A DNA stretch of 64,000 nucleotides, taken from assembly GCA_963555815.3 (NCBI GenBank), contig CAUVWX020000001.1, forward strand, positions 640,001-704,000, written 5' to 3'. Numbering within the stretch: position 1 is the stretch's first letter; each line of letters begins with the position of its first letter. The translations under genes and the position numbers were made by a program. Under the pieces are notes generated by a model. The model worked only from the letters and a program-made list of their open reading frames with translations. It was not told the origin of the DNA and did no database searches. Source of the stretch: a bacterium (lineage in GTDB: Bacteria; UBA8248; JACPRG01; G963555815). Shown here piece by piece: positions 33,677-46,691 of the stretch.

Positions 33677-33712
33677 GTGTTTCAGATATAATAAGTGTTT
33701 CAGATATAATAA
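33677..33712 (+). repeat. perfect 18-bp tandem duplication containing TATAAT
   Basis: GTGTTTCAGATATAATAA twice, just upstream of the WD40 gene RBS. Confidence 0.9.
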
Positions 33713-33729: not shown

Positions 33730-35799
33730 ATGCGTGCGCGCCGGTTTTGCCTTCAGGCCCTGATCGTCCTTCTTCCTGCCCTTCTTGCGTCTCTTGCCTT
33801 CTCCCAAGAAGTTCGGGTCCTCAAGGGGCATGGATATTCGGTCGCTTTTTCACCCGACGGCCGCCTCCTCGCCTCTGGGTCAGGGAAGACCATTCGCCTC
33901 TTGGAGGTCTCCTCAGGGGAAGAATTTAGGCGCTTTGAAGGATTTGGAGCCATTCAGACCGTCTCCTTTTCGCCTGATGGCCGCCTCCTGGCATCAGGGT
34001 CCGAGAGCGAGAATACGGTCCGTCTCTGGGAGGTCTCATCAGGAAGGGAGCTAAGGCGCCAGCGCCTTCTCGGGCATGAAGGCAAGGTCTCGTCCGTCAC
34101 CTTTTCACCCGATGGCCGTCTCCTGGCTTCAGGGTCATGGAACGACACCATCCGCCTCTGGGAGGTGTCCTCAGGGAACGAATTAAGGATCCTTGATGGA
34201 CATAGAGATATCGTCCACTCAGTCTCCTTTTCGCCCGACGGCAGCATCCTGGCATCAGGGGCAAGTGAAAAGACCATCCGCCTCTGGGAGGTCTCAACAG
34301 GGAGGGAGCTAAGACGCCTTGAGGGCCATGAAAATGGGGTCAACTCCGTCACCTTTTCACCCGATGGCCGTCTCCTGGCCTCAGGGTCATATGACCGAAC
34401 CATCCGCCTCTGGGAGGTCTCATCGGGGAAGGAAGTAAGGCGTTTTAAGGGGCATGGGGATGTGGTCAACTCCGTCTCCTTCTCGCCCGACGGCCGCCTT
34501 CTAGTCTCTGGGTCACGTGACAAAACCGTCCGCCTCTGGGAGGTGTCCTCGGGTAGAGAGCTGAGGCGCCTTGAGGGGCACAGAAACAATGTGTTAGCCG
34601 TCGTCTTTTCACCCGATGGCCGCCTCCTGGCGTCAGGGTCATGGGACCGAACCATCCGCCTCTGACCGATTTCCCCCGCTGGGGCTCCCGTCGTCGCCAA
34701 AGCGCCATCTCCTGCGCCTGCTCCGGAGCCTCCTCCCGTTGCCGAAGCACCTGCTCCTGCGTCGCGTGTCGAGCCCCCACGTCGGGACCCCATCCAAGGG
34801 CTTCTGGCCCGGGCGGATTCTCAGTTCTCGCGCAAGCACTACACGACGCCCGAAGGAGACAATGCTTTCGAGACCCTTCAGGAGGTTCTTAAGCTAGACC
34901 CTGGGAGCGAGCGGGCCCTCCAAAGGCTTCAGGAGATGGCGCAGATATATCGAGGTTGGGGCGACAAGGATCTTGCGCGGGGTAATTTTGAGCGGGCTCG
35001 GCAGAATTACGAGAAAATTCTTGTCCTCTTTCCTAAGGATCGGGAGGCCCGGGAACAGCTGGCGGCCGTTGACCAAGCTGAACAGGAAGAGGCCCGAAGG
35101 GTCGCCCGGGAGGAACATGAAGAGGGTCTTAGGAGGGAACAGGAAGAAGTGGCCTCTGTGCCGCCGGAAGAAAGGAAATGGAGGTCGGCGGGGTCGGGGT
35201 TCTTCCTGGCCGGGTCCACGCATATTGTGACGAGCAACCACGTCGTCCGGGACGTAGAGGAGATTCGAGTTTCCTTCCCCTCAGGCGAACAGTATCAGGG
35301 CAGCGTCGTCGCAAGAGACGCCAACAACGACCTGGCCCTCGTCCTTCTCCAAGGAATTCAACCGAAGAGCGGAGGCTTTGTCGCCGACCTGAGTGCTGAG
35401 GTCCAGGCCGGCGAGCGCATTCACGTCCTCGGCTACACCCTTGGCACAAACCTCAGCCGAAGCCCGAGCATCATCTCGGGACAGGTGAACGCCGCCACGG
35501 ATCTTGGGGACAACATCGCCCAGTTCCGGACGAATGCGCTCTTCAACGAGGGGAACAGCGGGGGGCCGGTCCTCAACGAGTTTGGCAAGCTTGTCGGGAT
35601 CGCCCGCGCGGGCCTGATACAGCAAGGGGTCGAGGGGATTCGCTTCGGCACCAAGCTTTCGGCGGCCTCCCTCCTTTTTGGCCAGGCGCAAATCGAGCGG
35701 GAGTTCACCATCCAGGTGACGCCGAGGGAAACTCCTATGCGCCCCCAAGAGATTTTCAGCGAATTCTCGCCTTTCGTGGTGTTGATTGAAACCCGTTAG
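33730..35799 (+). pseudogene. secreted WD40 + Pro/Ala linker + TPR + trypsin-like protease gene interrupted by one in-frame TGA
   Basis: ORFs 33730-34665 and 34936-35799 share a frame and the gap is open; TGA at 34663-34665 sits at the conserved Trp of 'TIRLW'; protease triad TSNHVV, NNDLAL, GNSGGP. Confidence 0.8.
33811..34662 (+). repeat. seven highly similar WD40 coding repeats (about 120-130 bp unit)
   Basis: Repeated FSPDG(R/S)xLxSGS...TxRL(W) units with strongly similar DNA. Confidence 0.9.
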
Positions 35800-36709: not shown

Positions 36710-36893
36710 CCTGATCGGCGTCTCACACTTCCTCCACAGCTCAATCTAGCACCTCGCCAAGCGGGCGTTTTCCCTCTTCTGTTGGGCCGCCAGGGGCCCC
36801 TCAATTTTTCAGAAAAAACGGTAGTGGGTCGTTTTGATTGATTAATTAACGTGTTCGAGGGGGGGGGTGTTTTGAAAGGTTTTAGGGATCGTT

Positions 36894-36918
36894 AGTGCGT
36901 TATGCCGCTTAACGCACT
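36894..36918. terminator. hairpin downstream of doc
   Basis: AGTGCGTTA-7 nt-TAACGCACT, 9-bp stem, 16 nt after the doc stop; no strong U tail. Confidence 0.4.
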
Positions 36919-36934
36919 TCGGAGAGCACGTTTT

Positions 36935-37375
36935 TCAAGGTCTAGCAAAGTCCCGCAAGGAACACCTTGGAGACAGCCACTCTTCGAATTCTTCTTTTCC
37001 CGTCTGTCCGTCTGCAATTTGAAGGAAAACCGCCGCAATTTCGCCTTGTTTGGCGTCTAATGAATATCCGTTTAAGCCCAGGAAACGGACTACACTGAGG
37101 GCGGCAATCCTCTTGTTGCCATCATTAAATGCGTGGGCTTGGCAGACATGAAATTCATAGGCAGCAGCCATCCCAAGAGGGAAAGAGTGTAAATATTCAC
37201 CGCCTGATGTAGCCCTCGCTTGGTGGATTGCGCTCTCAAGGGCGTTTCGATCTCTTAGCCCTGGCATTCCTCCAAATTCTTCAATAGCTGTCAAATGGGC
37301 CCCTATAACGTCTTCAATAAACAAAAAAGCGGGGCCGTAGCTTCTCACACGACCCCGCCCCGTTAAAACCATCAA
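36935..37375 (-). CDS. doc: Doc (death-on-curing) Fic-family toxin
   Basis: HAFNDGNKRIA Doc-type Fic motif, FGGMPGLRDRNALESA, FLGLNGY. Confidence 0.9.
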   Translation of the reverse strand: MMVLTGRGRVRSYGPAFLFIEDVIGAHLTAIEEFGGMPGLRDRNALESAIHQARATSGGEYLHSFPLGMAAAYEFHVCQAHAFNDGNKRIAALSVVRFLGLNGYSLDAKQGEIAAVFLQIADGQTGKEEFEEWLSPRCSLRDFARP

Positions 37376-37376
37376 A

Positions 37377-37928
37377 CTAAAGATTTGCTAGGCTTTTAAA
37401 ATCTTCTCGGTATTTCTCTAGGCTCTCCTTGGTTACTTTCTCAAGAATTGCCTTTCGTCTGCACGCCATAGTCCCAACAATGTCTATACATTCATACTGC
37501 TTGGCCTTTACCATCGGTAGAGTAGAGTAGACATACTTAACGAATCTGCCCCACGGAAGCCTCCATGTGTCCTCAATAACCTTTCTTAGCACAATCTTTT
37601 CCTCGTTTGTAAGGGCTTCAGCGACAACCTGCTTTTGGAGATCGGTGGCTTTCCACTCATACCACCGCTTTTTATCGCCATACATGGTGACATCTTCGTG
37701 GATTTCAATCTTCTTCCCATCAAGAGACTCCACATAGGAATCACCGGCCCCAACAAATGGGCCATGGTTGTTAAAAATCCACCTTGTTTGCGTGAGTTGC
37801 TCTCCATTTCCCCACGCCCATTCAACATCTAGCAAGTAAATGAGCTTATCGAGCCTACCGCTCGTAAGCTCTTGGGGTCTGGGGTATTCTGAGACCAAGA
37901 AATCCACTAAGTCCGAGAATCTCGCCAC
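37377..37928 (-). CDS. Panacea (DUF4065/SocA-like) antitoxin
   Basis: 'LTSGRLDKLIYLLD', 'WIFNNHGPF', 'LRKVIEDTW...YVYSTLPM'; GGAGGTG RBS before GTG; 1 nt upstream of doc. Confidence 0.8.
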   Translation of the reverse strand: MARFSDLVDFLVSEYPRPQELTSGRLDKLIYLLDVEWAWGNGEQLTQTRWIFNNHGPFVGAGDSYVESLDGKKIEIHEDVTMYGDKKRWYEWKATDLQKQVVAEALTNEEKIVLRKVIEDTWRLPWGRFVKYVYSTLPMVKAKQYECIDIVGTMACRRKAILEKVTKESLEKYREDFKSLANL

Positions 37929-38039
37929 GGTTCGTCACCTCCACACTATTAATTTGGTAGATGGCGGTGAGGCACGTCAATAGCTTTTTCGCACTATGTA
38001 AAAAATATGGATTATTTTCTGCGTATCTATTAACACGCC

Positions 38040-38522
38040 ATGCCTCGGGGTCTATATTGTTTCTCAGCGTTTGACCTATTGGTAACCGGAGTGGATCCAA
38101 TAACTTTCAATGAGTCCGTAAAGAGCCAGATCGAAGTCCTCGCGGCTGGGGAGGCCCATATTCTAAGCACGATTGCTCCCCTACAAAAGGAGCTTGAGGA
38201 GATCAGGGCTCGGATGAACCACCTAGAAGGTTATTTGGCTGCCCTTGATTCGGGTGAGGCGCAAAAGGGCCTGAAAGAGAAAGAGCCCATAACGGATAAG
38301 ATTGTCCGTGTATTCGAAAGAGAAAAGCGTCCTCTTCACTACCTGGAGGTCTTGTCTTTGCTTAGGGAGCAGGAGGGGTTTGTTATGACTGGAAAAGACC
38401 CAAAGGCAAATATGACAGCAAAGCTAGCAGGAAGTGCAAGGTTTAGCCGTCTCGACCGTGGTATTTACGTTCTCACAGAGTGGACCAAACAAAATCAAAG
38501 AAAAGCCCCGCAGGAGGACTAA
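38040..38522 (+). CDS. coiled-coil + HARE-HTH (HB1/ASXL/restriction endonuclease winged HTH) protein; start may be GTG 38091
   Basis: 'IVRVFEREKRPLHYLEVL...GKDPKANMTAKL...RFSRLDRGIYVLTEW' matches the HARE-HTH pattern. Confidence 0.7.
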   Translation: MPRGLYCFSAFDLLVTGVDPITFNESVKSQIEVLAAGEAHILSTIAPLQKELEEIRARMNHLEGYLAALDSGEAQKGLKEKEPITDKIVRVFEREKRPLHYLEVLSLLREQEGFVMTGKDPKANMTAKLAGSARFSRLDRGIYVLTEWTKQNQRKAPQED

Positions 38523-38536
38523 CCGTGCGGGGCTTT
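38493..38536 (-). terminator. intrinsic terminator, strongest for the minus strand
   Basis: Inverted repeat AAAGCCCCGCA (38502-38512) / TGCGGGGCTTT (38526-38536); on the minus strand the GC stem is followed by TTTTCTTTGATT. Confidence 0.7.
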
Positions 38537-38548
38537 GAAATTACTGGT

Positions 38549-38639
38549 GGATAGGGATAGGGGATAGTTCCCCTCGGGGACTTAAAATCCCACATAGTAT
38601 CCGGGCGGATATGCGGTTCGATTCCGCCCCTCTCCACCA
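38549..38639 (+). tRNA. non-canonical (8/4) allo-tRNA-like gene, anticodon TAA
   Basis: Acceptor GGATAGGG/CCCTCTCC (8 bp, one T:C mismatch); D stem AGGGGA/TCCCCT with 4-nt loop; anticodon arm GGGA-CTTAAAA-TCCC; variable stem GTATCC/GGATAT; T arm GCGG-TTCGATT-CCGC (4 bp); discriminator A plus encoded CCA. Confidence 0.8.
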
Positions 38640-38732
38640 CCACAATATTTTTGGGTGGGCCTCAGCGGTAACTGAGGCCCCTGGCAACACCGCTTGGGAT
38701 GTGCCCCCTAGCGATGCACCCACCCTCTGACG

Positions 38733-38761
38733 AATTTAGGCTAAATCCCTCGATTCGTCAA
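38733..38761 (-). promoter_or_regulatory. sigma70-like promoter pointing away from the transposase
   Basis: Minus strand TTGACG-17 nt-TAAATT, overlapped by inverted repeat TGACGAAT (38728-38735) / ATTCGTCA (38753-38760). Confidence 0.6.
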
Positions 38762-38810
38762 GCATCCAACGGCGGGCATCACTCCCAGGCCCTTTTGGGA
38801 GTGCCTACCG

Positions 38811-39635
38811 ATGAACGTCCTGCCACTCAAGCGCAAGGCCCTGGTCCTGTCTGCCATTACCGAGGGCACCTCTATTCGGGGGGCCTCTCGGCTAACCGGC
38901 GTCCAGAAAAACACCATCATCAAGCTTATCTGCGACACAGCTGAGAAATGCTGGGCCATTTCAGACAGTAAACTCAATGGAATACAGGCAAACGATCTTC
39001 AATGTGATGAGCTTTGGAGCTTTGTCGGGAAAAGGGACAAGAGACTCTACGGCCACGAGAGGCCCTATCTCGGCAGCCAGTTCATCTTTGTGGCCCTTGA
39101 GGCTCAGACAAAACCGATCCCCTGCTTCACCGTTGGGAAGCGTGATCTCTATACAGCAACCAAATTTATGCGGGATCTAAGAAAAAGGGTCTCAGGTCGG
39201 CCTCAACTCACGACAGACGCCTTCCAGGCATATCACACAGCTGTCCGCTTAGCCTTTGGGTCCGACGTGGACTATGCTCGGCTGGCTAAATCCTTTGCCA
39301 ACAACGGGACCCCAAGGCGGGAAGGCTATGCCCCATCTGATTTCAGGGCGATTAAGCCTGTCGTAATTAGCGGGAACCCCGACCCAAATAAAATCTCAAC
39401 CTCTTACGTTGAAAGGCAAAATTTGACGCTGCGGATGCAGATGCGTAGGTTTACCAGATTAACCAACGCCTTCAGTAAAAAGCTCCCAAACCTTAGGGCT
39501 GCGCTATGGCTTCACTTCACCTACTACAATTTTTGCAGGGTGCATCAGATGCTGGGGGTTACTCCGGCTATGGCCTCAAATATTTCCGATTACCCCTGGA
39601 ATTGGAGGGAAATTCTGTCGTGGCAAGCCCAATAA
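38811..39635 (+). CDS. IS1-family DDE transposase, single uninterrupted ORF
   Basis: N-terminal HTH (SIRGASRLTGVQKNTI); QCDELWSFVGK, LTTDAF, STSYVERQNLTLR, RRFTRLTNAFSKK. Confidence 0.9.
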   Translation: MNVLPLKRKALVLSAITEGTSIRGASRLTGVQKNTIIKLICDTAEKCWAISDSKLNGIQANDLQCDELWSFVGKRDKRLYGHERPYLGSQFIFVALEAQTKPIPCFTVGKRDLYTATKFMRDLRKRVSGRPQLTTDAFQAYHTAVRLAFGSDVDYARLAKSFANNGTPRREGYAPSDFRAIKPVVISGNPDPNKISTSYVERQNLTLRMQMRRFTRLTNAFSKKLPNLRAALWLHFTYYNFCRVHQMLGVTPAMASNISDYPWNWREILSWQAQ

Positions 39636-39709
39636 GGGACCGCAGAAAAGGGGCGCCTTTTATCCACCAGGAAAACGACCCACTACCGAAAAAACCTGTT
39701 GAAAAGTCT

Positions 39710-39738
39710 TTGATAAGGCGCAGTGCTTGCGGTATAAT
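39710..39738 (+). promoter_or_regulatory. dnaA promoter
   Basis: TTGATA-17 nt-TATAAT; DnaA-box-like sites nearby: TGTTGAAAA (39697-39705), GTTTCCACA (39863-39871), TGTTGATAA (39874-39882). Confidence 0.7.
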
Positions 39739-39945
39739 GGTATAGGTTTGAGAGAGCGTCCCCTGCCGAGTAAAAAGCGGCCCTTTCATAATGTTTTCAG
39801 AACCGACCTTCAGCTTTATAGCACCTACAGGGAAAACCTGGGGCGGAAGGGCCTCCGGAAAAGTTTCCACATCTGTTGATAATCTGTTTGTGTGTGTGTT
39901 TTTAGGTAGATGTACCGTGTTGGCCTGGGGGATTTACACAGCATA

Positions 39946-41271
39946 ATGGAAGAGATTTGGAAAAACGCCCTTGATTCCCTCCGGAAAAGCGCCGGGGGGC
40001 ACTCCGTTGGGACCATGCTGGACCCCGTCAAACCCAAGTCCTTTGACGGGCAGACGTTGACCGTCGCGGTCCCAAACCGGTTCTTCCGGGACTACCTCAG
40101 CGAGCACTACGGGAAGGCCATCTCGGACGCCCTTCAGAAAATGGCCGGACAGCCCATTGGCTTTCACGTGGTCATAGAAGGAGACCCCCGCCGTCCTCGA
40201 GTTGTCGCCGACGAGACCCCGCCCGGGATCAACGAGACCCCCCAAAGCCCTCCGGTCTTTCTGAACGCCCGTTACACTTTCGAGAACTTCATGGTCGGGT
40301 CCTCTAACCAGTTCGCCCACGCAGCCGCCCAGGCTGTTGCCGAGAGCCCGGCGACCGCTTATAACCCCCTATTCATCTACGGGGCCGTTGGGCTGGGCAA
40401 GACCCACCTAATGCACGCTATCGGGCATTTCGTCTTTGAGCGAAACCCGCACGCGAAGCTATGTTACGTCTCCTCTGAGAGCTTCACCCTCGACCTTATC
40501 AACTCCATCCGCCACGATCGGATGGGTGAGTTTCGCAACCGGTACCGGAAGATGGACGTCCTCCTGGTTGATGACATCCAGTTTATCGCGGGGAAGGACC
40601 GGACCCAGGAGGAGTTTTTCCATACTTTCAACACCCTCTATGAGTCAAAAAAACAGATCGTTCTCTCTTGCGACAAATATCCCAAGGAGATGATGGACCT
40701 TGAGGAGCGACTGCGCTCTCGCTTCGAATGGGGGCTTGTGGCGGACATCCAACCACCAGACCTCGAAACCAAGGTCGCCATTTTCAATAAGAAGGCCGAA
40801 GAGAACGGGATTGAGATCCCCCCTGACGTGGCCCTTTACGTCGCGGGGAAGATCCGGGCGAACGTGCGGCAGCTCGAGGGATGCCTGATCCGCCTGGGCG
40901 CCTTCAGCTCTTTAACAAAAACACCCATTACCATAGCCCTGGCAGATAAGATCCTCCACCAGATACTCCAGGAGGAGGAGAAGGCTATCACCATCGAGAC
41001 TATCCAGAAGGCTGTGGCGCAATACTTCGGTCTCAAGGTGTCTGACCTCCGGTCAAAGAGGCGCCAGCGGACTATTTCTGAACCCCGCCAGATCGCCATG
41101 TTCTTGTCCAGGGAACTAACAAAGGCCTCTTTACCGGAGATTGGGCGCCGGTTTGGGGGGAAGGATCACAGCACAGTCATCCATTCGTGTAAAAAGATTC
41201 AGTCTGCCAGGGAAAGCAACCCGACTATCCAGGCGGCCATCGACCGAGTTCGGGCAACACTTGAGGTTTAA
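39946..41271 (+). CDS. dnaA: chromosomal replication initiator DnaA
   Basis: YTFENF, YGAVGLGKTHL, DDIQFIAGK, RLRSRFEWGL, GGKDHSTVIH. Confidence 0.98.
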   Translation: MEEIWKNALDSLRKSAGGHSVGTMLDPVKPKSFDGQTLTVAVPNRFFRDYLSEHYGKAISDALQKMAGQPIGFHVVIEGDPRRPRVVADETPPGINETPQSPPVFLNARYTFENFMVGSSNQFAHAAAQAVAESPATAYNPLFIYGAVGLGKTHLMHAIGHFVFERNPHAKLCYVSSESFTLDLINSIRHDRMGEFRNRYRKMDVLLVDDIQFIAGKDRTQEEFFHTFNTLYESKKQIVLSCDKYPKEMMDLEERLRSRFEWGLVADIQPPDLETKVAIFNKKAEENGIEIPPDVALYVAGKIRANVRQLEGCLIRLGAFSSLTKTPITIALADKILHQILQEEEKAITIETIQKAVAQYFGLKVSDLRSKRRQRTISEPRQIAMFLSRELTKASLPEIGRRFGGKDHSTVIHSCKKIQSARESNPTIQAAIDRVRATLEV

Positions 41272-43949
<2,678 letters not shown>

Positions 43950-44174
43950 GAGCGCCGGGCAGTTTTGAGTCAAGGGCCGCGGGCTGACACTGACGGCCCC
44001 TGCGGTGGCACAGGTAACACTCGCGCAACAAGACGATCAACCCGTCATCTTTCTTTGTAAAGGTCTCGGGCGAGCGCGGTTGCAGAAAAAGCCGTGGCTT
44101 CGCCCCATTGCCAGATAACTGGATGAGGGCTTGGGCAAACCGGCCCGGCTGAACACCTGAGCGAAAGGGCGTCT

Positions 44175-46691
44175 ATGAACCAAATCCAGGAGTCGCGCAT
44201 CCCGGTCCCCATCGAGGAGGAGATGAAATCCTCCTTCATGGACTACGCCATGAGCGTCATCATCGCTCGGGCGCTCCCGGATGTCCGGGATGGGCTAAAA
44301 CCTGTCCACCGGCGGATCCTGGTGACGCTGAACGACCTGAACCTTCGGCCAGGGCGGGGCTTCCGAAAGTGCGCCAAGATCGCCGGTGACGTCAGCGGGA
44401 ACTACCACCCCCACGGCGAGGCCATCGTCTATCCCTCTCTCGTCCGAATGGCCCAGGATTTCTCCCTTCGCTATCCCCTCGTCAAGGGCCAGGGGAATTT
44501 CGGATCGGTGGACGGGGATCCCCCTGCGGCCATGCGTTACACCGAGGCCCGTATGACGGCCCTCACTGAGGAGATGCTCCAGGACCTCGAGAGGGAAACA
44601 GTCGATTTCGTCCCGAACTACGATGAGACCCGCAGGGAGCCGGTTGTCCTCCCCTCGGCCATTCCGAATCTTGTCGTCAACGGCTCTGACGGAATCGCGG
44701 TCGGGATGGCCACCAAGATCCCGCCGCACAACCTCACGGAGGTGGTGGCGGGGATCATGGCCCTCTTGGACGACCCCGACCTGCCGCCGGAAGCCCTCCT
44801 GGCGCACATTCCGGGCCCCGACTTTCCGACGGGGGCCGTCATTTACGGGCGAAAAGGCATCCGGGACGCCTACCTGACGGGCCGAGGACTTCTACAGCTT
44901 CGCGCCCCAGCCTCTACCGAAAGGATAAAGCGGGCAGGGCGTGAGGTGGAAGCCATCATTATCAACGAGATCCCCTATCAGGTGAACAAGGCGAAGCTGA
45001 TCGAGCGGATCGCCGACCTGGTCCGAGACAAAAAGGTCGAGGGGATCTCGGACTTGCGGGACGAGTCGGACCGCGAGGGCATGCGGATTGTCATCGAGCT
45101 TAAGCGCGAGGGCGTCTTTTCGGTCACCCTGAACCAGCTCTATCGGCACACCCCCATGCAGGTCACCTTTGGGGTCATCCTTCTTGCCCTTGTGAACAAC
45201 CAGCCCCGCGTCCTCAATCTTAAGGAGCTTCTGGTCCACTTCATCAACCACCGCAAGGACGTGGTGGTTCGCCGGACCCAGTTCGACCTGAAGAAGGCCC
45301 AGGACCGGGCGCACATCCTGGAAGGGCTCCTGGTCGCCCTCGGGAAGATCGATGCCGTCATCAAGCTCATTCGGGGCTCCAAGACGGGCGAGGAGGCGCG
45401 CTCGGGTCTCATAGGACAATTCAAGATCACCCAGGTTCAGGCCCAGGCCATCCTGGAGATGAGGCTCCAGCGCTTGGTGGCTCTGGAGAGGAAGAAGATC
45501 GAGGCGGAACACCAGGAGCTCACAGAAAAGATCGCGCGCTTCAAGGCCATTCTGGCCGACGAGAAGCTGGTTGCCCGGGTCGTCCGAGAAGAGCTCCTCG
45601 AGGTCAAAAAGAAATACGGAGACGAGAGGCGGACGCAGATCGTAGATGAAACCTCCGAGATCACCTTCGAGGACACCCTCGTCGAAGAGGACATGGCGGT
45701 CACCATCAGCCGCTCGGGCTACATCAAACGGAACGCCGTCTCCCTCTATCGAAGCCAGCGACGAGGCGGCAAGGGCGTCCGGGGGATGGGGACCAAGGAG
45801 GAGGACATCGTAGAGGCCCTCTTCGTGGCTTCTACGCACGACACGGTCCTCTTCTTCACGAATCAGGGCCGCGTTCATTGGCTCAAGGTCTATCAGCTCC
45901 CGCAGGCCAGCAGGGCCGCCAAGGGAAAAAACATCGTCAACCTCCTTAAGCTGAAGGAGGGGGAGACCGTCTCCCAGACCCTCCCGGTGCGGGACTTTGA
46001 CGAAAAGAGGTTTGTCCTCATGGTGACGCGCAAGGGCGTGCTCAAGAAGACGGCCCTGTCGGCTTTTCGCCGGCCCAAGGCAGGGGGGATCATCGCCATC
46101 CAGCTCAGGGAGGGGGATGAGCTTGAGGCCGTGCGCCTCACGGATGGCCAGCGAGAGGTCTTCCTCGGCTCCAGCAAGGGAAAGGCCGTGCGCTTCTCTG
46201 AAGAACGGGTTCGCCCGATGGGGAGAACAGCGGCCGGCGTGAGGGGAATGGCCCTTGGACAGGGAGATGTCATCGTGGGGGCCGAAGTGGTCGCAGAGGG
46301 TTGCACCGTTCTCTCGGTGACGGAGAAAGGCTATGGGAAGCGGACTTCCCTTGAGGACTATCGCCTCACGAACCGTGGCGGAAAGGGGATCATCAACCTC
46401 AGGGTGGTCAAGAAGAACGGGCCCGTCGTGGGGATCATGCAGGTCTATGAGGATGACGAGTTCATCCTGATTACGTCGGGAGGACAGGTGATCCGCTCAA
46501 AGGTCAGGGATATTGCAGTCCATGGCCGGGGGACCCAGGGGGTCAAGGTCATCAACCTTGCGTCGGGAGACCGCGTCGTGGGGGTTGCTCGCCTGCCCGA
46601 ACAGGAGGAAACGGGCGAGCTGGCTCCCCAAGATGGGGATCAAATGCCCGGGTCCGAGGAAGGAAATAACGAGAAAGAGGCGAAACGCTAA
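44175..46691 (+). CDS. gyrA: DNA gyrase subunit A
   Basis: RALPDVRDGLKPVHRR, YHPHGE, AAMRYTE, GyrA box QRRGGKG. Confidence 0.98.
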   Translation: MNQIQESRIPVPIEEEMKSSFMDYAMSVIIARALPDVRDGLKPVHRRILVTLNDLNLRPGRGFRKCAKIAGDVSGNYHPHGEAIVYPSLVRMAQDFSLRYPLVKGQGNFGSVDGDPPAAMRYTEARMTALTEEMLQDLERETVDFVPNYDETRREPVVLPSAIPNLVVNGSDGIAVGMATKIPPHNLTEVVAGIMALLDDPDLPPEALLAHIPGPDFPTGAVIYGRKGIRDAYLTGRGLLQLRAPASTERIKRAGREVEAIIINEIPYQVNKAKLIERIADLVRDKKVEGISDLRDESDREGMRIVIELKREGVFSVTLNQLYRHTPMQVTFGVILLALVNNQPRVLNLKELLVHFINHRKDVVVRRTQFDLKKAQDRAHILEGLLVALGKIDAVIKLIRGSKTGEEARSGLIGQFKITQVQAQAILEMRLQRLVALERKKIEAEHQELTEKIARFKAILADEKLVARVVREELLEVKKKYGDERRTQIVDETSEITFEDTLVEEDMAVTISRSGYIKRNAVSLYRSQRRGGKGVRGMGTKEEDIVEALFVASTHDTVLFFTNQGRVHWLKVYQLPQASRAAKGKNIVNLLKLKEGETVSQTLPVRDFDEKRFVLMVTRKGVLKKTALSAFRRPKAGGIIAIQLREGDELEAVRLTDGQREVFLGSSKGKAVRFSEERVRPMGRTAAGVRGMALGQGDVIVGAEVVAEGCTVLSVTEKGYGKRTSLEDYRLTNRGGKGIINLRVVKKNGPVVGIMQVYEDDEFILITSGGQVIRSKVRDIAVHGRGTQGVKVINLASGDRVVGVARLPEQEETGELAPQDGDQMPGSEEGNNEKEAKR

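Follow-up and report, generated by a model that had tools for sequence, protein, structure and literature searches.

A serine-type (8/4) allo-tRNA gene with a UAA anticodon as cargo of an IS1-family element: a possible regulated misreader of UUA

Introduction

What might a tRNA gene that joins a serine-type body to a leucine anticodon contribute to a bacterium that already encodes a canonical tRNA-Leu(UAA) and its own tRNA-Sec? The question is raised by a locus in the window, a stretch of 64,000 nucleotides from a bacterium of the UBA8248 lineage (contig CAUVWX020000001.1, positions 640,001 to 704,000). tRNAs of this general kind were defined as (8/4) and (9/3) allo-tRNAs (Mukai et al., NAR 45:2776; PMC5389517), and their natural role has been open since that description. 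At this locus the role is directly testable, since the element is small and bounded, promoters can be predicted, the host tRNA makes it redundant, and both natural variation (two alleles) and a relative with an empty site are known. The reading tentatively preferred below, whose chance of being right is somewhat less than even, is that a serine-bodied UAA allo-tRNA in an IS1 element is likely charged with serine, misreads UUA and acts as a regulated, mildly toxic cargo beside a Doc/Panacea pair.

Structure and class of the tRNA gene

The gene and its parts, all on the plus strand, are as follows.

38549..38639, +: (8/4) allo-tRNA gene, 91 nt, with serine-type acceptor start, UAA anticodon, A73 and CCA
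38545..38548, +: 5' leader TGGT, which can pair with the terminal ACCA (by folding)
38549-38556/38628-38635, +: acceptor stem, 7 of 8 pairs, mismatch T38552:C38632
38559-38564/38569-38574, +: D stem, 6 bp, loop TAGT
38576-38580/38588-38592, +: anticodon stem, four standard pairs and a G38576:A38592 mismatch
38583-38585, +: UAA anticodon within the loop CT-TAA-AA
38597-38602/38607-38612, +: V stem, 6 bp
38613-38616/38624-38627, +: T stem, 4 bp
38636, +: discriminator A73, followed by the encoded CCA

The initial annotation had described this cloverleaf, and the 8-bp acceptor with its T:C mismatch, the stems and loops, A73 and CCA all lie where it had placed them; the G:A mismatch of the anticodon stem is an addition to that description. 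Its start at 38545 needs adjusting: the RNA proper begins at 38549, on the plus strand as claimed, and 38545-38548 form a 4-nt leader. Minimum-energy folding of the 91-mer yields the cloverleaf (-36.3 kcal/mol), with pair probabilities of 0.6-0.7 for the V stem and just 0.3-0.4 for the D and anticodon arms. When the leader is included, none of 200 shuffles is as stable as the 95-mer (z = -3.39), and the fold contains the suggested pairing of TGGT with ACCA, which is not found in the closest homologue (L264). The gene is followed by a further CCA, but E. coli trailers have been described, in the available part of the source, as resembling CCACCA tags (PMC5824355), so no weight is placed on it.

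Standard models gave a divided result, with Rfam matching the gene to tRNA-Sec at 50.4 bits (gathering 47; E 2.8e-8) and ARAGORN, run over the locus, not calling the 91-nt gene. Covariation is more informative. Across seven close homologues, 91% of stem cells are paired and 15 pairs have two-sided changes, with compensatory changes in every helix; the score was matched by 0 of 500 shuffles and slid controls fell far lower, although the V-arm alignment is poor. The 8/4 register proposed at first annotation is also favoured. All of a set of 29 8/4 sequences form the eighth acceptor pair, with 14 two-sided changes, and six form the alternative fifth T-stem pair (7/5 register). As the 29 were picked as 8/4 by an in-house folding script, this demonstrates consistency more than an independent test, and their D and anticodon arms are imperfectly aligned (about 60% paired).

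The gene belongs to the (8/4) allo-tRNAs of Mukai and colleagues. Its 12-bp branch is split 8 + 4 (with one mismatch in the window allele), its D stem is long and tRNA-Sec-like (6 bp, tetraloop TAGT), and its variable arm is long with a 6-bp stem. Most (8/4) allo-tRNAs have G73 or U73 and this one has A73, but 'major' rows with A73 exist in the published table, making G73 or U73 typical rather than defining. The UCA anticodon, G73 and 13-bp or bulged 8/4 branch of tRNA-Sec are lacking, as are the 7/5 branch, C2:G71 and large D loop with G18G19 and A20a of canonical tRNA-Leu, with which the gene shares A73 (A38636). UAA-anticodon allo-tRNAs were indeed known, as first annotated: in the available part of the source, sheet 1 holds 16 UAA rows, 15 'major' (about five distinct sequences) and one 9/3, all with G73, and the A73 'major' rows, among 17 of 88 places listed, have GUC, GCG and UAU anticodons (PMC5389517). 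With the published UAA rows all G73 and the A73 rows bearing other anticodons, the class is known and, relative to those rows, the combination of UAA with A73 is new.

Wider searches returned few further members. An in-house covariance model found no further allo-tRNA among its 50 best loci in 51 + 151 genomes, bar its two founders; 74% of its matches were tRNA-Sec, 37-47 bits below the allo-tRNA gene. Pattern scanning of metagenomes returned mostly ordinary tRNA-Leu (111 of 120 matches), the same scan of viral sequences gave no allo form in 120 matches, and the plasmid search gave no tRNA match and four distant transposases only. The best false match of the detection script on the host genome scored 39.8, against a cut of 41. 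Six distinct UAA allo-type genes were found in metagenomes, five with G73 and one with C73, and one of the two with enough flank has an IS5-type transposase downstream. A separate metagenome contig (L217) carries an ETX/MTX2 (aerolysin-like) pore-forming family gene at 105-875 together with a 7/5 serine-type UAA tRNA with G73.

The IS1-family element

The tRNA gene is cargo of a 2,868-bp IS1-family element that extends from 36820 to 39687, a setting absent from the initial annotation.

36812..36819, unstranded: target-site duplication, left copy (8 bp), single in the empty site of G001
36820..36835, +: left terminal inverted repeat, starting GGTA (repeat search)
36935..37375, -: Doc/Fic-family toxin gene, 146 aa (Pfam Fic 8e-11; TIGR01550 DOC_P1 above cut-off)
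37377..37928, -: Panacea/SocA-domain antitoxin gene, 183 aa (PF13274 1e-7)
38100..38522, +: coiled-coil and HARE-HTH gene, predicted regulator, start ATA (all seven database homologues have their initial M at this position or beside it)
38811..39635, +: single-ORF IS1-family DDE transposase, 274 aa (PF03400 above cut-off; NF033558 1e-17, the best family, below cut-off)
39672..39687, -: right terminal inverted repeat (repeat search)
39688..39695, unstranded: target-site duplication, right copy (8 bp)

Inverted repeats, an 8-bp target duplication and an empty site in the congener G001, where the 8 bp are present once, identify an IS1-family element with passengers. The proximity to a toxin-antitoxin (TA) system that had been noted for such tRNAs applies here, with the Doc/Panacea pair lying next to the gene. 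In the available part of the original description, TA systems and one transposon-related ORF are reported near allo-tRNAs, rather than carriage in a bounded IS (PMC5389517). PADLOC gave weak domain matches only on the element.

The surroundings offer several separate observations. The insertion point is some 220 bp 5' of the dnaA ORF and immediately ahead of a promoter-like site; gyrB and gyrA directly follow dnaA with no room for dnaN or recF (window 39688-46691). A copy of the left inverted repeat lies at G000:C1:815275-815292 inside the IS1595 element described below, with no IS1 transposase near, and is probably a remnant. Elsewhere in the window, a perfect 18-bp tandem duplication (33677-33712) just precedes a WD40-repeat gene (33730-34665).

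Amino acid identity

As the initial annotation proposed, the identity elements are mixed, a serine-type start and long arm being joined to A73 and a leucine anticodon. All four host tRNA-Ser types have the acceptor start GGAG with G73, and the allo-tRNA start agrees with every host tRNA-Ser and with no host tRNA-Leu. The C2:G71 pair found in all five host tRNA-Leu is absent from it; this pair acts as an antideterminant against SerRS, according to the part of the source available (PMC9976931). In L264, the closest homologue, the discriminator is G73, the acceptor pairs perfectly and the anticodon is UAG, for leucine. All distinct phage 8/4 genes of the same scaffold that were retrieved have serine anticodons, so the scaffold is a serine body.

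In the accessible parts of the identity literature (PMC7609411; PMC7590224; PMC9976931), the long arm is the main Ser element; G73 is a moderate Ser element, which acts as a determinant in vivo though not with in vitro transcripts, and a block against LeuRS; A73 is the main LeuRS determinant; and LeuRS requires A15:U48, G18G19 and A20a in a Leu-type D loop. By these rules, A73 would weaken serylation and lift one barrier to LeuRS, yet the D loop is wrong for LeuRS, as a loop of four nucleotides cannot supply the required elements. The same sources give G73 as the strongest serylation element of tRNA-Sec, which is the closest structural model for the allo-tRNA, and by this analogy the G73 dependence counts against serine charging. 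The predicted ranking places charging with serine first, poor charging second and charging with leucine last. The accessible allo-tRNA identity literature yielded no tested case of an A73 allo-tRNA without G3:U70.

A leucine-charged helper would arise if A73 had made the gene a cognate tRNA-Leu(UAA), which could aid UUA decoding of the AT-rich genes of the element or replace a host tRNA cut by a toxin. Such a helper is distinctly unlikely. It is consistent with A73, which is kept across strains, with the long arm and with an anticodon arm identical to that of host tRNA-Leu(UAA) over 15 nt, and the Doc gene has four TTA among its 15 Leu codons; but this TTA use does not exceed that of passenger genes at large (p = 0.056), a tRNA-Leu(UAA) is already encoded by the host, and the D arm is without Leu elements. 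Moreover, G73 is found in the 16 UAA rows of the published sheet 1, as available, and in five of six metagenome UAA genes, and no other cargo tRNA appears cognate.

Codon usage bears on the same question. TTA is the rarest sense codon of the host, at 2.09 per 1000 codons or 1.9% of Leu codons, with a share that rises from 1.3% among high-GC3 genes to 8.7% among low-GC3 genes and 10% among passenger genes (counts from a crude ORF set, n = 1049). It is nevertheless present in 568 of the 1049 long host ORFs, so the host would also be hit by UUA misreading. Across 17 elements, the codon read by the cargo tRNA is neither consistently avoided nor enriched in the elements' own genes. The suggestion that the tRNA supplies the rare UUA codon is therefore weakened, because the host has tRNA-Leu(UAA) and the element genes have no codon link.

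Alleles in other strains

Contigs from two other studies (X6 and X15) carry G at 38552, restoring the fourth acceptor pair, and G at 38566, giving the D loop TGGT as in the outgroup and homologues. Both retain A73 and the G:A pair of the anticodon stem, and the HARE-HTH start reads ATG in X6 (A38102 to G) where the window has ATA. The T:C mismatch and TAGT loop are thus peculiar to the window allele among the strains compared, in a low-depth comparison made among the variant rows listed. With an intact fourth pair and a TGGT loop in X6, X15 and the outgroup, the window allele is probably derived and weaker, having a broken fourth pair, A at D-loop position 18 and an upstream ATA start; this direction rests on runs X6, X12 and X15 and the outgroup L264. 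As A73 is kept in other strains, it is not merely decay. The tRNA has 3 differences in 91 positions against 31 in 3140 elsewhere, an excess that is not significant (p = 0.07). A weakened allele suits relief from a costly gene, but drift too. Of the RNA runs, X17 alone covers part of the element: one of its contigs spans 37425-37651, in the Panacea gene, and none spans the tRNA; such contigs show neither level nor strand.

These changes are relevant to the possibility that the gene is a non-translating mimic or a decaying remnant, which is folded and processed but poorly charged, and which would either lure toxins or nucleases that target tRNAs, as a decoy, or mark the transposase transcript for processing, its allele perhaps dying. 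This reading is somewhat unlikely, though several observations suit it. The window-allele changes strike an acceptor pair and G18, the upstream start is ATA, many sister tRNAs have odd loops or bodies, and six UAU allo-tRNAs were inactive as suppressors in the available part of the original study, which also describes inactive UAU species near transposons (PMC5389517). Against it, the stems are intact in other strains, the anticodon loop is perfect in an arm that equals host tRNA-Leu(UAA) over those 15 nt, and the excess of tRNA differences does not reach significance.

Predicted promoters and a predicted antisense RNA

38030..38058, +: predicted sigma70 promoter serving the HARE-HTH gene, the tRNA and the transposase (10/12 consensus)
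38496..38537, -: hairpin and U-tract, predicted terminator just beyond the tRNA (-21.7 kcal/mol)
38657..38680, +: leader hairpin, common to sister elements
38714..38944, +: upstream ORF, predicted leader peptide, running across the start of the transposase gene in a different frame
38733..38761, -: predicted outward promoter TTGACG-17-TAAATT
38775..38806, +: hairpin, predicted to sequester the ribosome-binding site of the transposase gene at 38797-38801 (unpaired probability 0.00-0.05, four folds)

On the plus strand, the arrangement TTGACA/T-17-(T/G)ATATT recurs upstream in four sister elements, and L285 and L286, sisters without the HARE-HTH gene, have a promoter directly before the tRNA. 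In the leader, the ATG of the upstream ORF is placed at -91 to -97, with its relative frame conserved, in seven of the eight closest elements, and the frame is open across the transposase start in six. On the minus strand, the outward promoter lies 43-49 nt from the ATG in six of the eight (0-9 of 500 shuffles) and at 26 nt in a seventh, and a strong terminator follows beyond the tRNA slot in seven, a count made with no shuffle control for terminators. An antisense RNA of about 230 nt from the outward promoter is predicted to cover the leader and the entire tRNA. The promoter and terminator expected of a type VIII-like antisense RNA are predicted and conserved, though found also in tRNA-less elements: the whole unit is in L287 and the terminator also in L265. 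As the unit exists without a tRNA, it may serve the transposase only. L265 and L287 hold a different, mutually similar structured sequence in the tRNA slot, about 150-230 nt upstream of the transposase.

Related elements and their cargo tRNAs

A set of 144 distinct related transposase loci was assembled, drawing on this phylum, on Acidobacteriota and on viral contigs; a transposase search of the genome collection yielded two loci only. Inverted repeats bound 99 of the 144, 78 of these with an 8-bp duplication. By an in-house scan, 20 of the 99 bounded elements, including the window one, contain tRNA-like genes (22 matches, one doubtful) and 79 have none; among the eight closest elements, six carry a tRNA. 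Matches occur within 400 nt upstream of the transposase at 17 of 143 loci, a placement that also agrees with a processing signal, and in the next 400 nt at 0 of 142 (Fisher p = 9e-6, with related elements non-independent). Overall, 22 matches in 231 kb inside elements compare with 25 in 392 kb of flanks, 13 of the latter in one phage array, so the signal is slot position together with body/anticodon mismatch, not density. The cargo tRNAs of L596, L597, L289 and L600 point away from the transposase, which means that a role in transcript processing is not general.

Read by standard identity rules, none of the other 20 credible cargo tRNAs looks cognate, each having a mismatched body and anticodon or reading a stop codon. 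Ser/Leu bodies occur with UAU, UAG and UGG, and short-arm bodies with Ser, Ala, Pro, Gln and Leu anticodons. In this phylum, nine of ten have U34 anticodons for A-ending codons (one loop being degenerate). In several, a degenerate loop or a short-arm body should make charging by any synthetase poor, which fits a non-coding role. Rfam confirmed tRNAs in 11 of 20 loci submitted and missed 8/4, 9/3 and degenerate forms, which rest on the in-house script. About one in five of the sampled related elements carries mismatched tRNAs that standard annotation misses or mislabels. The literature search, which covered titles and the openings of abstracts outside subscription, found no account of IS-borne mismatched tRNAs apart from the remark of Mukai and colleagues. 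The other cargo of the related elements is TA and defence-like, in a subset of 122 of 369 ORFs.

The host genome holds three such tRNA-bearing elements, counting the window one. The other two are an IS1 element at C1 980285-982252 (L002) and an IS1595 element at C1 813276-816442 (L001, L293), each with a long-arm UGG tRNA, annotated as tRNA-Pro, just before the transposase and each with an empty site in G001. The tRNA of the former has a clean leucine-type body, A73 and CCA, and is a candidate Pro-to-Leu mistranslator.

Further afield, tRNA-like genes of 9/3 and 8/4 form, predicted readers of stop codons (L596, L597, L598, L320 with loop UUA, L369 with loop CUA), lie in or beside IS1 elements of Acidobacteriota and a viral contig. 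Elements L289, L583, L595, L599 and L344 contain short-arm tRNAs that combine U73 with an Ala, Ser or Pro anticodon but lack the identity elements to match. A distant clade (L003, L288, L289, L290) has a conserved basic ORF of about 75 aa near the left repeat, with no Pfam match and no counterpart in the window element. In the G003 sister, an IS3-like element (L283:2235-3418) is seemingly nested next to the Panacea gene, where a toxin gene would otherwise follow.

Integration into tRNA genes is common, and the gene could act at the DNA level as a surplus attachment site, drawing off integrases that target tRNA-Leu or tRNA-Ser genes. The 15-nt identity with the anticodon arm of host tRNA-Leu(UAA) and a stray tRNA 3' fragment before the tRNA in L263 would suit this idea. 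It is highly improbable, given that the stems covary as RNA, that 0 of 21 credible cargo genes are split by an integrated element, and that L285 and L286 place a promoter immediately upstream.

A proposed role and its implications

For the preferred reading, a serine-charged misreader of UUA, the following course is proposed. The allo-tRNA would be transcribed together with the HARE-HTH gene and the transposase, and released by normal tRNA processing. SerRS would charge it through the G1:C72, G2:C71, A3:U70 start and the long arm, with A73 lowering efficiency, and the charged tRNA would then put serine at UUA, the least used sense codon of the host. An antisense RNA that starts at the outward promoter would damp it. 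The benefit would likely be addiction, or harm to AT-rich invaders that use UUA about five times as often. A precedent is given in the available part of the original study, in which (8/4) GAG and (9/3) UAA allo-tRNAs put serine at Leu codons in E. coli and killed cells on induction (PMC5389517). Counted against this reading are A73, the lack of a codon signature, the absence of the tRNA from most elements and the odd sister tRNAs.

A broader and unlikely proposal is that the IS1/IS1595 lineage uses mis-built tRNAs as interchangeable RNA toxins that recode host-rare, invader-common codons, with a cis-antisense RNA, which also controls the transposase, as antitoxin. If true, it would represent a natural mobile genetic-code firewall or an addiction module of RNA alone. 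If the cargo tRNAs mistranslate, transposons would regularly make the genetic code of bacteria locally ambiguous.

Comparison with known systems

Bacterial tRNA-Sec (RF01852) has a similar D arm and long V arm, and its gathering score is passed, but the window gene has a 12-bp rather than 13-bp acceptor branch, UAA rather than UCA, and A73. IS10 RNA-OUT and plasmid R1 CopA/tap are antisense-controlled leaders, and CreTA is a type VIII RNA-RNA toxin-antitoxin. The element resembles these in its predicted outward promoter and hidden ribosome-binding site, its leader ORF and a putative RNA toxin acting on decoding; unlike them, its putative toxin is a tRNA and its antisense RNA is a prediction.

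The 'transporter IS' of the IS1 family (ISMhu11 subgroup) have a DDE transposase, repeats starting GGTA, an 8-bp duplication and TA or defence-like cargo, all as found here; compared with such passenger IS, the window element adds tRNA cargo. Relative to the distant clade, a leader with an upstream ORF and outward promoter replaces the small basic gene.

Phage (8/4) tRNA-Ser share the scaffold and acceptor start with the window gene but differ in their serine anticodons, G73 or U73, and location mostly in tRNA arrays; those with long flanks gave no IS1 or IS1595 transposase match alongside. The UAA 'major' allo-tRNAs, as far as given in the available rows (PMC5389517), share the 8-bp acceptor, 4-bp T stem, long D stem with tetraloop, long V arm, GGA start, non-serine anticodon, Leu-like anticodon arm and nearby TA genes. 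The window gene is set apart from those rows by A73 in place of G73, an encoded CCA, a 6-bp V stem and, in its own allele, the TAGT loop and fourth-pair mismatch.
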